A DNA stretch of 11,536 nucleotides from NCBI GenBank assembly GCA_018238545.1, contig JABCTC010000069.1, positions 1 through 11,536 of the forward strand, written 5' to 3'. Shown piece after piece: positions 1-6,426 of this stretch. Source of the stretch: Candidatus Heimdallarchaeota archaeon (GTDB lineage Archaea > Asgardarchaeota > Heimdallarchaeia > Heimdallarchaeales > Heimdallarchaeaceae). Both the position numbers and the translations under genes were made by a program. Within the stretch, counting starts at the first letter, position 1; the number at the start of each line of letters is the position of its first letter. The notes under the pieces were generated by a model. The model was not told where the DNA came from. It did not search any database and was given only the letters and a program-made list of their open reading frames with translations.

Positions 1-520
1 AATAGATTATCCTTGCATCAGCAGGAATCCTATCTCCTTGATCCAATTCGATTAAGTCACCAGGTACCAAATCTACTGCAACTATTTGTCTAGGTACACC
101 ATCTCGTATTACCGTTGATCTTGGAGCAGCTAGCTTGTGTAATGCATCCAATTTGAATTGAGCTCTTATTTGTTGAAAAATTGTAAAACCAATATTGAAA
201 ACAATTATTATCAACCAAAAGCCAATTTGCCCAATAATGCCATCTACCCATATTGCCATGAAAATTAGAATAGAAGAAACAATAAGGTAGATATTGATTA
301 ACCAATTGAATAATGGAGCTAGATATATCTCCCAAATTGATCCTTTGATTTTGGGAATTACATTAGGACCATATTGTTTTAGTCGTTTATCTGCTTCATC
401 ATCATGTAAACCAAATCTGATATCAGTATTGAGTTCCCCACTTATTTTATCTTCTGAAAGATGATGAGGACATAAGTATTTTTGAGTTAAAAATTCTGTT
501 TGCTTGGTTCTTTTTCGCAT
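1..520 (-). CDS. Cation-transporting P-type ATPase, type II (Ca2+-ATPase-like); 5' part only, runs off the window start
   Basis: Manual translation from ATG 520 (alternative GTG 526) is open to the window edge: MRKRTKQ...GLHDDEADKRLKQYGPNVIP (Cation_ATPase_N motif), two hydrophobic helices, then VIRDG...DLVPGDLIELDQGDRIPADARII (actuator domain). Not in the ORF track. Confidence 0.95.
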   Translation of the reverse strand, partial: MRKRTKQTEFLTQKYLCPHHLSEDKISGELNTDIRFGLHDDEADKRLKQYGPNVIPKIKGSIWEIYLAPLFNWLINIYLIVSSILIFMAIWVDGIIGQIGFWLIIIVFNIGFTIFQQIRAQFKLDALHKLAAPRSTVIRDGVPRQIVAVDLVPGDLIELDQGDRIPADARIIY

Positions 521-563
521 GGGCACACAACCAGCTATGGTAAGAAATTAACAAAACTATGCA

Positions 564-577
564 ATATAAACTTTAAG
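564..577 (-). promoter_or_regulatory. Putative TATA box for the P-type ATPase
   Basis: Minus strand reads CTTAAAGTTTATAT, about 45-55 nt upstream of ATG 520. Confidence 0.4.
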
Positions 578-625
578 CTGATATATTGAGAAATATTTAA
601 CAATCAACACTTCTTTTACAAATTA

Positions 626-638
626 AGTAAAGTTTAAG
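626..638 (+). promoter_or_regulatory. Putative BRE/TATA for the NTase-KaiC operon
   Basis: AGTAAAG followed by TTTAAG, about 60 nt upstream of ATG 699. Confidence 0.4.
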
Positions 639-650
639 AGAGCATCCACA

Positions 651-677
651 ATTGTTTGTTTAGCGATAAACAAAAAT
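651..677. repeat. Inverted repeat or hairpin TTTGTTTA-GCGA-TAAACAAA
   Basis: Perfect 8-bp arms at 655-662 and 667-674 around GCGA (GNRA-type loop). The stem extends 3 bp further if G654 is bulged. Confidence 0.55.
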
Positions 678-698
678 AAAATTTACAAGTGATTAACT

Positions 699-1526
699 AT
701 GAGCACACCCCCCTCTAAACCTCCTAGTCCTGGTATTCGTCGCGCTGGTCCTGATGGTAGACCACTAGGTCCTGACGGAAAGCCAATGGGACCTATCTTA
801 TTGCGAGATGAATACAAAAATCTGGTTGATGGATTTACTAACGATATCAAAAAAGAATTATCTAAAGAAGTTAAGAGTCTTCTTCTAATTGGAAGTTATG
901 TTACAGCAGAGCACATCGCTGGTGAATCTGATTGTGATTTTCTTATAGTCTTAGATGAAAAAGCATCTGGAGATAATTTTCAACAATCAATGGAAGCAAT
1001 AAGTAAAATTGTTTTCAAATATCTAGAAGATCCACTATTTGGTTCAATAATTGATGTTGAGGTTCTAGGGGCAAGTGATGTACCCACCAAAGGAGACACA
1101 GATTATCCTTGGACAAAAGTACTAGTAGCTCAACGAGGTAAAACACTAATTGGAGACAACCCATTTACAAAAATTAAGATAAGTGAAGAAAATATCAAAA
1201 TGTCAGCTAAAGAGATGGCTTTAGTCTATCTAGAGCAACTCGAAGAAATTATTGCTACTGATGAGATTGATGAATATGACCAACGATACTTAACTGTTGA
1301 AGCAGTTCTGGGGTGTGGATGTGCATATCTTTACTATCATGGTGAAAAAGAATTCTACCGAAGTTCAGCTATAATTCTTTTTGAAGATAAATACAGGGAT
1401 AAAATAGATATTGATCCAATCCAAATCAGTCATAGATTAAGGTTAGCGGTAAAGACTCTTGATATGAAGGATTTCATTCCCAAATCTTTAGACTTCTGTA
1501 AGAAAGTTGTCTCTGAATTGAAATAA
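699..1526 (+). CDS. Pol-beta superfamily nucleotidyltransferase (MNT/KNTase/ANT-like) with a C-terminal helical (HEPN-like or substrate-binding) domain and a Pro/Gly-rich N-terminal extension
   Basis: hhhhG65S66-x11-D78xD80hhhh (LLLIGSYVTAEHIAGESDCDFLIV), third acidic residue in IID119VEV, MNT-typical GKTLIG strand, then about 110 aa of predicted helical bundle. Confidence 0.85.
   Translation: MSTPPSKPPSPGIRRAGPDGRPLGPDGKPMGPILLRDEYKNLVDGFTNDIKKELSKEVKSLLLIGSYVTAEHIAGESDCDFLIVLDEKASGDNFQQSMEAISKIVFKYLEDPLFGSIIDVEVLGASDVPTKGDTDYPWTKVLVAQRGKTLIGDNPFTKIKISEENIKMSAKEMALVYLEQLEEIIATDEIDEYDQRYLTVEAVLGCGCAYLYYHGEKEFYRSSAIILFEDKYRDKIDIDPIQISHRLRLAVKTLDMKDFIPKSLDFCKKVVSELK
747..794 (+). repeat. Degenerate 21-bp in-frame tandem repeat (about 2.3 copies) encoding GPDGRPL-GPDGKPM-GP
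   Basis: ggtcctgatggtagaccacta / ggtcctgacggaaagccaatg / ggacct. Confidence 0.8.
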
Positions 1527-1528
1527 AA

Positions 1529-1534
1529 GAGGAG
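1529..1534 (+). promoter_or_regulatory. Shine-Dalgarno site for the KaiC-like gene
   Basis: GAGGAG 5 nt before ATG 1540, within a 13-nt intergenic gap; typical of an internal operon gene. Confidence 0.7.
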
Positions 1535-1539
1535 AAAGT

Positions 1540-2196
1540 ATGTCAGTAAGAACTAGTATAGATATATTGGTTGATAGTGTAGAAGGTTCTGTAGTTCTTT
1601 GCATAGGTGAATCAGGAACAGCAAAAGAAGAAATGGCATACAGATTTGTTGAGGACGGTTTTCAGAAAGGAGAAAATGTTATAGCAGTTTTATTTGCTCA
1701 CTCAGCTAGTGATTATCTTGAGGAATTGAAAAAACGAGACGACAAGAATGAAGCTTATCTTAAGAAAGGCCAACTTAACATTATAGACGCTATTTCTTAT
1801 AGGTCAATTCCAGAGGTAAAACCTCCTAAAACATTCTTTTTAGAAAATGCAAACGATTTGCTAACGCTCTCTGTCGCCTTGAATGAGCAATCTCAAAAAG
1901 CTGATAAACTACGAATTGTTTTTGATCAACTTGCTCTCCTAACATTATATAATGAACCAATGCAAGTTTTAAACTTCCTTCAAACATTAGCCGCAAGGGT
2001 TAGAGATAGAGACCAAGCCATCTTGCTTTTATTAGATGCAGGAGTTATAGCCGAACAAACAGAAAAAACTCTCCATACAATAGTTGATGTTCTAGCTGAA
2101 ACAAAAAGAACAGATGAACCCACAGGTCCTCAACAGCTTGTCAGAATCAAGTTTGCTAAAAATCAATATGAACCTCGATGGGTACAGGTAGTATAA
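1540..2196 (+). CDS. Single-domain KaiC/RAD55 (RecA-fold) family protein with degenerate ATPase motifs
   Basis: VVLCIGESGTAKE (Walker A-like), FVEDGFQKGENVI, LNIIDA, RIVFDQL (Walker B-like), LHTIVDVL, VRIK: the motif order of archaeal KaiC/RAD55/DUF835 proteins. Confidence 0.85.
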   Translation: MSVRTSIDILVDSVEGSVVLCIGESGTAKEEMAYRFVEDGFQKGENVIAVLFAHSASDYLEELKKRDDKNEAYLKKGQLNIIDAISYRSIPEVKPPKTFFLENANDLLTLSVALNEQSQKADKLRIVFDQLALLTLYNEPMQVLNFLQTLAARVRDRDQAILLLLDAGVIAEQTEKTLHTIVDVLAETKRTDEPTGPQQLVRIKFAKNQYEPRWVQVV

Positions 2197-2210
2197 ATTA
2201 TTCACCCATC

Positions 2211-2225
2211 ACAAAATATTTTATC
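2211..2225 (+). promoter_or_regulatory. BRE/TATA of a probable leaderless promoter for the M24 peptidase
   Basis: ACAAAATA-TTTTATC, with the TATA element 22-28 nt before ATG 2247 and no SD. Confidence 0.5.
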
Positions 2226-2246
2226 TCCTATTTTCACATCATGTAG

Positions 2247-3443
2247 ATGATATTAGAATACGACTTTTTTCCTAAAAAAGAGTTTTTAGACAGGATAGAG
2301 CATCATCAAAAAGAGCTCGTAGAATCTGAAGTAGATTTTTCTATAATTCAATATAAATCAGACCTCTATTATTATTCAGGAACTGGTCAATCTTGTATAT
2401 TGGTAGTATCAGCTGAAAGTGAACCGTTACTCTTTGGAAGGCGAGAAATCAAAAGAATAAAGCAAGAAACAGCATTAGAGAATATTATTGCAATAAAAAA
2501 TACTAGAGAAATTTTCTCACATCTAACCGATTGGGGAATTAGAGTAAAAGGGGGTAAATTTGGTCTTGAAGGGGATATCCTTCCTGCTGATATGTATCAT
2601 AAGGCTGAAAAAATATTCCCAGAGAAACAAGCGATTTCTATTGGATCTTTACTTCGAAAGATACGATCTGTTAAGAGTGATAATGAGATTGATGCTTTGA
2701 AAAAATCTGCTAGTATTCTAGATGAAATCCATGAGCTAGTGCCATCAATAATCAAAGAAGGTATGACAGAGATAGAAGTTAGCTCAATACTTAACAATGA
2801 AATGCGGATTAGAGGAGCTCAACCCACAGTTAGAAGCAGAGATTTCTATACAGAGACAGGAGGAATAGGACTTGTCCTATCAGGCACCAACACAGCAATT
2901 AGCAGTTACACTCTGACAGCAACTGCAGGTCCGGGCATACATCAATCAAACCCAGCTGGACCAAGTTTCAAAAAGATTGAACGAGGAGAAATTATTTTTG
3001 TAGATTTTTCACTTGCTTACAAAGGTTACATCACAGATGAAACTAGATGTCATGTTCTAGGTCAAGCTTCTGATGAAATCAAGGACAGATATCAAAAAAC
3101 TTGGGAATTTGAAAAATTCATGAGTAACAAGATGAAAAAAGGTAAAAAAGTGAGTGAGATTTATCATGAAACATATGACTTCGCTGAAGAGCTCGGTGTT
3201 AAAAATGAACTAATGTCGGGGGGGCAGATTCCTTTCTTAGGGCATGGAGTTGGTTTAGAGCTAAGTGAACCACCAATTATCACAAAAAAATCAGATTATA
3301 TTCTGAAAGAAGGTAATGTAATCGCTTTAGAGCCAAAATTAATTTATCCAAATAAGATGGTAATAGGCTCAGAAAATACGTATGTTATTAGCAAAAATGG
3401 AACAGTGCAAATAACCAATGCAGCCCAACCTCTACTAGAATAG
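2247..3443 (+). CDS. M24 family metallopeptidase (Xaa-Pro dipeptidase/aminopeptidase, creatinase-N + pita-bread fold)
   Basis: DLYYYSG, RSVKSDNEI, and metal ligands in VDF...GYITDETR, GHGVGLE, LEPK and GSENT. Confidence 0.93.
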   Translation: MILEYDFFPKKEFLDRIEHHQKELVESEVDFSIIQYKSDLYYYSGTGQSCILVVSAESEPLLFGRREIKRIKQETALENIIAIKNTREIFSHLTDWGIRVKGGKFGLEGDILPADMYHKAEKIFPEKQAISIGSLLRKIRSVKSDNEIDALKKSASILDEIHELVPSIIKEGMTEIEVSSILNNEMRIRGAQPTVRSRDFYTETGGIGLVLSGTNTAISSYTLTATAGPGIHQSNPAGPSFKKIERGEIIFVDFSLAYKGYITDETRCHVLGQASDEIKDRYQKTWEFEKFMSNKMKKGKKVSEIYHETYDFAEELGVKNELMSGGQIPFLGHGVGLELSEPPIITKKSDYILKEGNVIALEPKLIYPNKMVIGSENTYVISKNGTVQITNAAQPLLE

Positions 3444-5403: not shown

Positions 5404-6426
5404 ATGGCATCGATTCTTGATTTCATATACTCTTTAGCAACACCGTTAATGATTAAAGCTTTACTTACAGCAATAATTATTGGAGTTTTAGGGGGGATTG
5501 TCGGAGTTTTTGTTCTGTTAAAAGGTATGGTGTTTCTTGGTGAGGCTATAGCCCATTCAGCTTTTGCCGGAGCTGCATTGGGGATACTCTTAGGCATAGA
5601 TCCACTTATTACAGTTATGATTTTTGGAATCACTTCTTCTATAGGTATTGGTTATGTTAATGAAAAAAAGGTTATGAAGGATGAAATAATTATTGGAGTA
5701 GTATTTACCAGTTTCATGGCTTTAGCTATACTCTTCATAGGATTAATGCCATTTTACTCAACAGATGTAACTTCAATATTGTTTGGAGATATTCTCCTCA
5801 TTTCTTGGGAAAATTTCATTTTACTCATTAGTGTGGCTGCAGGAGTTTTACTCATCATTTTTGCTCTAAAGAAGGAATTATACTTGATAACATTTAATGA
5901 AGAAATGGCTTTAGTAGCAGGTATTCCAATAAGATTTCTAAATTATCTCTTTCTAATACTTATAGCAGTTACAATTGACGTTTCATTGAAAGCAATAGGA
6001 GCAATTTTAGTTTTTGCAATGATAATTACGCCTGCTGCAGCAGCTTATCAATGGACATTTAAGCTAAACAAAATGCTTTTGTTGTCAGCATTATTTGGTG
6101 TAATTTCAGCTTTTCTAGGGTTATTTTTCTCATTTATCTGGGATCTACCTTCTGGATCAACTATTGTTGGAGTTGCAACATTAATTTTTGCTCTATCATT
6201 TATTGTGTCTCCGAAGAGAAGAAAGTCTGGAACAGGACATGATATTGAGAATTGTGAATATTGCGCAAAATCCATTAATGGCAGAAAATTCTGTCTGGAA
6301 GAAAGTTGTATAGCCAAAGAGATTCCACACAAACATAGTGAGGGAGAGTTGATTATTTATAAAAAAGATTTGAAGGAAAAAAGTATTCCGTCTATACACA
6401 AACATGAAACGGAGGGTGAAGAGTGA
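5404..6426 (+). CDS. znuB: Zn/Mn ABC transporter permease (ABC-3/ZnuB) with a 71-aa Cys/His-rich C-terminal extension
   Basis: GEAIAHSAFAG, LFGDIL, TFNEEMA...GI, IGAILV.AMIITPAAAA, DLPSG; multiple TM helices. Confidence 0.95.
   Translation: MASILDFIYSLATPLMIKALLTAIIIGVLGGIVGVFVLLKGMVFLGEAIAHSAFAGAALGILLGIDPLITVMIFGITSSIGIGYVNEKKVMKDEIIIGVVFTSFMALAILFIGLMPFYSTDVTSILFGDILLISWENFILLISVAAGVLLIIFALKKELYLITFNEEMALVAGIPIRFLNYLFLILIAVTIDVSLKAIGAILVFAMIITPAAAAYQWTFKLNKMLLLSALFGVISAFLGLFFSFIWDLPSGSTIVGVATLIFALSFIVSPKRRKSGTGHDIENCEYCAKSINGRKFCLEESCIAKEIPHKHSEGELIIYKKDLKEKSIPSIHKHETEGEE

Follow-up and report, generated by a model that had tools for sequence, protein, structure and literature searches.

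A nucleotidyltransferase and a degenerate KaiC-fold protein are encoded by a conserved two-gene operon of Heimdallarchaeia

Results

Two closely spaced genes form a conserved unit

The DNA analysed here, called the window throughout, is a stretch of 11,536 nucleotides (positions 1 to 11,536 of contig JABCTC010000069.1, assembly GCA_018238545.1) from the chromosome of a Heimdallarchaeaceae metagenome-assembled genome (G000, contig C121 in our labelling), with a low GC content of about 34%. It carries two adjacent genes on the forward strand, one for a nucleotidyltransferase (NTase) and one for a KaiC-like protein, which a first-pass annotation had singled out as a candidate system. Calling of open reading frames on the window gave exact boundaries for both genes:

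699..1526 (+): NTase gene, 275 amino acids (aa), assigned from Pfam PF01909, an AlphaFold2 (AF2) model, VIA-align and Foldseek
1527..1539 (+): spacer of 13 nt with a Shine-Dalgarno-like GAGGAG; sequence aagaggagaaagt
1540..2196 (+): gene for a KaiC/RecA-fold pseudo-ATPase, 218 aa, assigned from Pfam KaiC, an AF2 model and Foldseek

Because the 13-nt spacer is too small for a promoter, translation of the two genes is probably coupled. A GAGG-type motif stands 6–10 nt ahead of the KaiC-like ATG in all eight Heimdallarchaeaceae loci inspected (8/8). The layout that had been read from the window at first, with a 13-nt gap, a Shine-Dalgarno motif before the second gene, a divergent gene upstream and an apparently separate promoter downstream, was borne out; the motif is a Shine-Dalgarno-like GAGG, and the downstream spacer holds TATA-like and T-tract elements.

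We then compared the locus across relatives, where f1 denotes the Heimdallarchaeaceae, f2 a Kariarchaeaceae-like and f5 a Hodarchaeales-like lineage, and the other families and genera are referred to by label only. Within the genus, the order NTase then KaiC-like is found in every genome with both genes (22/22), although contig ends, and nothing else, split it in three of them, and it recurs in all six genomes (6/6) of four other Heimdallarchaeaceae genera, two closed genomes included. Outside the family, the pair is kept in f2, where a 91%-identical protein bears the name Kariarchaeaceae, in f4 (3/3 genomes), in genera g5 and g7 of f3, and in f6 (8/8 genomes with both genes on one contig). 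Gene order and strand are constant at all NTase/KaiC-like pairs and the gap measures 13–43 nt at most loci; two gaps are longer, at about 165 nt, and two apparent overlaps reflect the way in which start codons were called. Identity to the proteins of the window is 21–36% in other lineages, and no other gene of the window accompanies the pair. A lack of conserved adjacency would have spoken against the proposed module; instead, the pair is retained across five family-level lineages with differing flanks, and its constant order, strand and short gap lend good support to a conserved, co-transcribed two-gene unit. The annotation had also known of no described NTase-KaiC pair, and a literature search found no paper describing one. 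According to these data, the two genes make up an operon that is specific to Heimdallarchaeia and vertically inherited, and their adjacency suggests a partnership that has not been described before.

The NTase has an intact active site and an AadA-type fold

The following features were located within the NTase gene:

891..938 (+): catalytic motifs G65-S66 (891-896) and D78-C79-D80 (930-938), codons read directly
1053..1055 (+): third catalytic carboxylate, D119, in the strand IIDVEV, from sequence and alignment
699..794 (+): N-terminal arm rich in Pro and Gly, with GPDG[RK]P repeats and predicted disorder (pLDDT below 50-60, residues 1–34)

The protein passes the Pfam family NTP_transf_2 (PF01909) with 23.6 bits against a cut-off of 21 (E 6.7e-5). 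Its codons bear out the intact GS-x11-DxD...D triad annotated at first, since G65-S66 is separated by eleven residues from D78-x-D80, and D119, the third carboxylate, lies on the strand that comes next. The GS or GG motif, the DxD motif and the third carboxylate are kept at every locus at which the NTase adjoins the KaiC-like gene, and the dN/dS of the NTase against relatives is 0.05–0.15, indicating purifying selection. Judged from these sequence features, the NTase is probably catalytically active. The N-terminal arm is Pro/Gly-rich across the genus and missing from all other families. DxN variants of the NTase are confined to genus g3 and a long Hodarchaeales-like paralogue. In neither does the NTase adjoin the KaiC-like gene, since the two genes lie apart or no KaiC-like gene was found. 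In two genomes of the DxN lineages, the third catalytic site is N or Q. As DxN represents only two independent events, the correlation between an intact triad and adjacency is suggestive at most. The long f5 paralogue (L033:3953-4969, L035:4552-5562) carries a helical N-terminal extension of about 80 aa and has DxN, not DxD; a second, short NTase paralogue of f5 keeps DxD.

The AF2 model of the NTase (pLDDT 83) combines a minimal Pol-beta NTase domain with a HEPN-like bundle of four helices at the C-terminus, which is the two-domain fold of the ANT/AadA type. Searching a VIA-align library of 48,161 chains, we obtained ANT(3'')(9) (7uy4, Z 16.7) and ANT(9) (6sxj, Z 15.8) as top matches, with an rmsd of 3.1–3.2 over 214–222 residues, followed by KNTase and the oligo-dA synthase HalB (both Z 10.8); Foldseek agreed, with TM values of 0.6–0.66. 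Structure searches, which the first-pass annotation had proposed for both proteins, thus place the NTase in the ANT/AadA fold and the second protein in the KaiC/FlaH fold (Foldseek). The NTase resembles ANT(3'')(9)/ANT(9)/AadA and kanamycin nucleotidyltransferase in combining a Pol-beta NTase domain with a HEPN-like bundle and in its GS/DxD/acidic triad (Z 15.8–16.7). It differs from them in sequence (12–14% identity), and it is no resistance gene but part of the class-wide core of uncultured sediment archaea, where it has a dedicated KaiC-like partner. The family is small, with 46 clusters (50% identity) at E<=1e-10 among 1.84 billion representatives. Three assignments were rejected: as ANT(9) by sequence (NCBIfam ANT_9, 16 bits against a cut-off of 340), as a CD-NTase/CBASS cyclase (NCBIfam, 11.4 bits against 200; Foldseek TM 0.28–0.30; no effector gene in the window) and as MntA (NCBIfam, 13 bits against 60).

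A fused MNT plus HEPN-like protein, which is what the NTase is structurally, could belong to a toxin-antitoxin or antiviral defence cassette, and PADLOC returned weak, generic matches to models of the MNT type. The known counterparts, HI0073/HI0074 and the type VII toxin-antitoxin system MntA-HepT, likewise have an NTase with an adjacent non-enzymatic or regulated partner, and their MNT and HEPN halves are recognisable in the protein of the window. Here, however, the two halves are fused, the partner has a RecA/KaiC fold and the module is not mobile. No Rx4-6H motif is present in the helical domain (residues 160–275), and the match to MntA stays far below its cut-off. Moreover, the gene is single-copy, vertically inherited, class-wide and set among housekeeping genes, and the KaiC-like protein has no PADLOC match. 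We give this explanation, which these data already largely refute, next to no credence.

A further piece of NTase sequence lies at a contig end of the same genome (C109:3-281, minus strand), where it matches codons 1–93 of the NTase of the window at 99% identity. This fragment probably stems from redundant assembly or overlapping strains and not from a second copy of the gene.

The KaiC-like protein has lost most of its ATPase residues

Three sites of the KaiC-like gene bear on its catalytic capacity:

1606..1629 (+): degenerate Walker A, G23-E-S-G-T-A-K29-E30, with the second Gly replaced by Ala and the Mg-binding Ser/Thr by Glu
1696..1701 (+): A53-H54 in place of the catalytic Glu-Glu pair of KaiC, from the alignment of VTLEEPP with VLFAHSA
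1924..1926 (+): Walker B Asp, D129, retained, from the alignment

The protein passes the Pfam KaiC family (PF06745) with 53.9 bits against 26.6 (E 2e-14), and it has weaker matches to DUF7504 (5e-7), MEDS and DUF835, which are KaiC-like sensor or pseudo-enzyme domain families. Its AF2 model (pLDDT 88.6) was matched by Foldseek most closely to FlaH, PH0284 and the CI domain of KaiC, with TM values of up to 0.81, and to the RadA paralogue SSO2452 with a TM of 0.74. Whereas canonical Asgard KaiC reads GKAGTGKT...VTLEEPP...VIDTLS, the protein of the window reads GESGTAKE...VLFAHSA...VFDQLA. The claim that the ATPase residues are lost therefore largely stands: the second P-loop Gly, the Ser/Thr and the Glu pair are gone and the Walker A consensus GxxxxGK[ST] is unmet, but the P-loop K29 and the Walker B D129 are kept. 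The Glu pair, which in active KaiC comes after strand 2, is missing throughout this subfamily. Together, these replacements suggest that the protein is no longer able to hydrolyse ATP.

Across the family, the P-loop decays stepwise from GPPGSGKE (f6) to GESGTAKE (f1) and then to glycine-free forms in which only K/R is left; the glycines are lost in f2, f3 and f4, whereas f6 and f15 keep GxxGxGK. A basic residue (K/R) always occupies the Walker A Lys position. The Walker B Asp is kept in f1 and f2 and is W or N in f3, f4 and f6. Owing to the decay of the P-loop and the replacement of the Walker B Asp by N or W, a conserved canonical nucleotide pocket is disfavoured. The gene is nonetheless maintained, with a dN/dS of 0.06–0.13 against relatives, which is purifying selection; given the range of 0.05–0.15 for the two genes, neither is a decaying pseudogene.

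In fold and size, the protein is close to the single-domain KaiC-like proteins ArlH/FlaH, PH0284 and SSO2452/aRadC, from which it differs by the loss of the Glu pair and of the Walker A Ser/Thr and by the lack of archaellum genes nearby. Identification as ArlH was rejected (NCBIfam, 36.5 bits against 215; no arl genes in the window), as was identification as Elongator Elp4/5/6 or a Rad51 paralogue, no such Pfam family being matched.

These data bear on two ways in which the NTase might act on its neighbour, both put forward in the first-pass annotation. In one, the NTase AMPylates or UMPylates Ser, Thr or Tyr residues of the KaiC-like protein and thereby switches a signalling scaffold, as MntA acts on HepT and GlnE on glutamine synthetase. 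An intact NTase does adjoin the proposed target, its fold class takes in the protein-AMPylating MNT, DrrA and GlnE, and S86, S111 and Y137 are invariant in the KaiC-like family. However, relatives without an NTase partner conserve these three residues just as well. More generally, no Ser/Thr/Tyr or other residue is specific to the NTase-linked copies, all residues conserved to at least 95% being common in unlinked relatives, so that the family gives no sign of an acceptor site. The closest structural relatives of the NTase modify small molecules, and some lineages in which no such KaiC-like protein was found nevertheless keep the NTase. We regard modification of the KaiC-like protein as unlikely.

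In the other, the NTase makes a nucleotide or oligonucleotide signal that the degraded P-loop of the KaiC-like protein binds. The ever-present basic residue at the Walker A Lys position, the GxxGxGK retained in f6 and f15, and the moderate fold match of the NTase to the oligo-dA synthase HalB (Z 10.8) are compatible with such a receptor. The loss of the P-loop glycines in f2, f3 and f4 and the change of the Walker B Asp to W or N are not what a nucleotide receptor would lead one to expect; the matches to CD-NTases are poor (TM about 0.3; 11 bits against 200 in NCBIfam), the window holds no effector gene, and in f5, f9 and f22 the NTase persists without the KaiC-like protein. Signalling of this kind appears very unlikely. 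On these sequence comparisons, both proposals are weakly disfavoured.

A related arrangement was observed in Loki-like and other Asgard families (L039:4035-7891, L040, L041), where the gene for a KaiC-like protein comes after that of a canonical single-domain KaiC (Pfam 1e-69). These nearest Loki-like relatives keep GxxGxGKT, lack the Glu pair and are partnered with canonical KaiC instead of an NTase. A gene for a protein of 767–768 aa comes next in L039 and L040, the L039 protein having a weak TPR match. The Loki-like genes may encode an ATPase/pseudo-ATPase pair related to the KaiC-like family of the window, an arrangement that fits a general role of such proteins as non-catalytic partner subunits.

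A CCDC47-like gene is the third member of the unit in other families

Outside the Heimdallarchaeaceae, a third gene that had no place in the earlier account of the module follows the KaiC-like gene in f2, f4, f3 and f6. This gene, F3, encodes a protein of 230–290 aa with one N-terminal transmembrane helix, a globular domain and a Lys-rich tail, and with an isoelectric point (pI) of 9.3–9.8. Pfam CCDC47 was matched by five of eight F3 proteins at E<=0.01, the best at 1.5e-9 and 37.9 bits against a cut-off of 27.7 (L020). One F3 protein is labelled a DUF1682 domain-containing protein by NCBI, and the ESM Atlas gave DUF1682 for F3 at 0.80, which we take as a lead only. Eukaryotic CCDC47, a component of the PAT complex and multipass translocon (PF07946, formerly DUF1682), shares with F3 the N-terminal transmembrane helix, the globular cytosolic domain and the K/E/R-rich tail, whereas F3 lacks its acidic N-terminal domain and is encoded outside the window. 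CCDC47 has been described as conserved across eukaryotes (PMC7505659). Among the papers searched, none combines CCDC47 and Asgard archaea.

Genome G000 itself has a copy of F3 on contig C62 (20809-21711; L028:1480-2382, plus strand), directly after a gene for a Ras-family small GTPase. The encoded protein of 300 aa has the transmembrane helix, the globular domain and a long K/E/R tail, and it aligns to positions 8–322 of the 326 of the CCDC47 profile, with an E-value of 1.6e-3 and 18 bits, below the cut-off.

The connection between the three genes extends beyond the contiguous loci. In g3, where the NTase is now elsewhere, and in f15, where none was found, F3 remains with the KaiC-like gene, and the NTase directly abuts F3 in f9. 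In a set of 300 Asgard genomes, the NTase and F3 share the range f1–f7, f9 and f22. Neither was found in 76 f11 genomes; a search of 68 f14 genomes found no F3 and, for the NTase profile, only short N-terminal matches of about 1e-6 in five of them.

The phyletic pattern is also where a purely historical explanation has to be weighed, namely that functionally unrelated genes are adjacent through inherited order within one class. All carriers belong to one phylum and mostly to one class, and each of the three genes is met on its own in some lineages, as such an explanation would allow. On the other hand, order, strand and a promoter-excluding gap persist while all other neighbours change, and all three pairwise adjacencies of NTase, KaiC-like gene and F3 occur, in different lineages. 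That the genes have nothing to do with each other is, in our assessment, quite unlikely.

An HhH domain in one family raises the question of nucleic-acid contact

In f4, the NTases bear a C-terminal extension of about 110 aa that consists of a Lys-rich linker and a helix-hairpin-helix (HhH) domain (L015:1830-2963, L016:3446-4558, L017:3998-5080). The HhH domain is matched by Pfam HHH_5 (5e-11), and its best match in the PDB is the N-terminal domain of P. furiosus RadA (1pzn, 3.3e-7). As it stands directly ahead of the gene for the RecA-fold pseudo-ATPase, the domain order of RadA is here spread over two genes. By mimicking RadA in this way, the f4 arrangement gives indirect support to a physical association of the NTase with the KaiC-like protein, and it may hint at nucleic-acid contact in this lineage.

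A nucleic-acid module in the wider sense would have the KaiC-like protein as an inactive RadA paralogue and the NTase extending DNA or RNA ends or modifying a nucleic-acid-bound factor. Besides the RadA-type HhH behind its Lys-rich linker, the match of the KaiC-like model to SSO2452 fits this reading. The HhH domain, however, is found in one family only, the NTase and the KaiC-like protein are acidic in most lineages (pI 4.5–5.1), the NTase has an ANT-type rather than a polymerase fold, and a membrane-anchored third partner is unsuited to repair. Such a module is improbable in our view.

Genes placed upstream of the NTase were also seen in f6 and f3. In f6, a protein of 278 aa is encoded directly upstream (L031:3747-4583, plus strand; also L030 and L032), within one genus only, and it has weak Pfam matches of the winged-helix type to PCI (6.7e-6), E3_UFM1_ligase (1.4e-4) and DDRGK (2.8e-3). 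No relationship was detectable between this protein and the 277-aa product of the gene upstream of the NTase in f3.

Flanking sequences and remaining genes of the window

The pair is bounded by the following features:

2-526 (-): divergent P-type cation ATPase, N-terminus only, upstream of the pair
527..698 (+): presumed promoter region of the pair, shared with the divergent P-type ATPase gene, read from the sequence
2197..2246 (+): 50-nt spacer with a T-tract and a TATA-like aaaatatttta, read from the sequence
2247-3443 (+): M24 Xaa-Pro peptidase, downstream of the pair

The presumed promoter region contains AT-rich, TATA-like stretches such as aaaaataaaattta, about 14–27 nt 5' of the NTase ATG. 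Read from its composition, the 50-nt spacer likely holds both the end of the transcript of the pair and the start of the M24 peptidase unit, and an M24 gene stands 3' of the pair in the four closest relatives only. The remaining genes of the window encode housekeeping functions (SDR, ZnuABC, Alba, a DAG-kinase-like protein, PspC, NucS and a prepilin peptidase), and the locus is part of the housekeeping chromosome, not a genomic island. Rfam and tRNA scans detected no RNA genes in the window. The ZnuB-type ABC-3 permease among these genes (5404-6426, plus strand, 340 aa) has a C-terminal extension of about 70 aa beyond the ABC-3 domain, the Pfam ABC-3 profile stopping at residue 268.

Discussion

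We propose that the operon encodes an active ANT-fold NTase together with a KaiC-fold adaptor or regulator, ancestrally coupled to a membrane-anchored CCDC47-like protein. This is our preferred explanation, and we put its chances of being correct at about even. Based on the conserved adjacency of their genes, we infer a complex of the NTase with the KaiC-like protein. Its sole catalyst would be the NTase, transferring a nucleoside monophosphate, most likely AMP, onto a hydroxyl group. The dead KaiC would have no catalytic part and would position or gate the NTase as an adaptor or regulatory subunit. In the ancestral state, the pair would have been the front of a three-gene unit with F3 as its third gene, and in the Heimdallarchaeaceae F3 would have been relocated elsewhere in the genome. 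As F3 spans the membrane once and has a CCDC47/DUF1682-like domain on the cytosolic side, the complex would probably reside at the cytoplasmic face of the membrane. A KaiC-like adaptor at the membrane has a parallel in ArlH, a nucleotide-dependent adaptor docked to the membrane-anchored ArlX, and archaeal KaiC-like proteins were reportedly described as 'signal transduction hubs' by Makarova and colleagues in 2017.

Several observations weigh against this proposal. In f5, f9 and f22, the NTase occurs without this KaiC-like protein, and one of the f5 genomes concerned is closed and 96% complete; in the f5 genomes, the KaiC-like profile found no match even at E<=1e-3, though two NTase paralogues and F3 are present. 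The survival of the NTase in these lineages means that the partnership is not obligatory, and its presence in f5, where the KaiC-like protein was not found, means that the latter is not the only conserved substrate or receptor of the NTase. In G000, F3 lies on contig C62, unlinked from the NTase/KaiC-like pair, and F3 profile searches of the PDB retrieved no solved CCDC47 chains. No NTase-KaiC fusion was present among the best 150 of the 393 library matches: P0126 and P0139 have their NTase-like match in the C-terminal half, with a front part that shows no Pfam domain or a weak hydrolase match, not KaiC, and P0141 joins an NTase to NUDIX. Nor were longer, fused forms of the KaiC-like protein found, although this is weak evidence. 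Finally, conserved order within one class could partly be inherited synteny. If it is mere synteny, the pair would still be a useful marker of genome organisation in Heimdallarchaeia, with little wider interest.

A more far-reaching version of the proposed NTase/KaiC-fold operon can be formulated, which we consider a long shot. The pair could be the catalytic and adaptor half of an ancestral Heimdallarchaeial three-protein machine built around a CCDC47 homologue and nucleotidylylating at the interface of membrane and ribosome or translocon, and thus a prokaryotic forerunner or regulator of a component of the eukaryotic translocon for multipass membrane proteins. Among known archaea, Heimdallarchaeia are closest to the eukaryotes, and most of the conserved genes particular to them are, to our knowledge, without an assigned function.

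The module is class-wide, single-copy and under purifying selection, and all three proteins that it connects lend themselves to work in vitro. The NTase offers a clean catalytically dead control (D78A/D80A), the pseudo-KaiC is small and soluble, and the CCDC47-like membrane protein has only one transmembrane pass. Finding the substrate of the NTase would assign a biochemical function to one of the pseudo-ATPases in the large KaiC-like family of archaea, and it could also reveal the role of the archaeal CCDC47-like protein.

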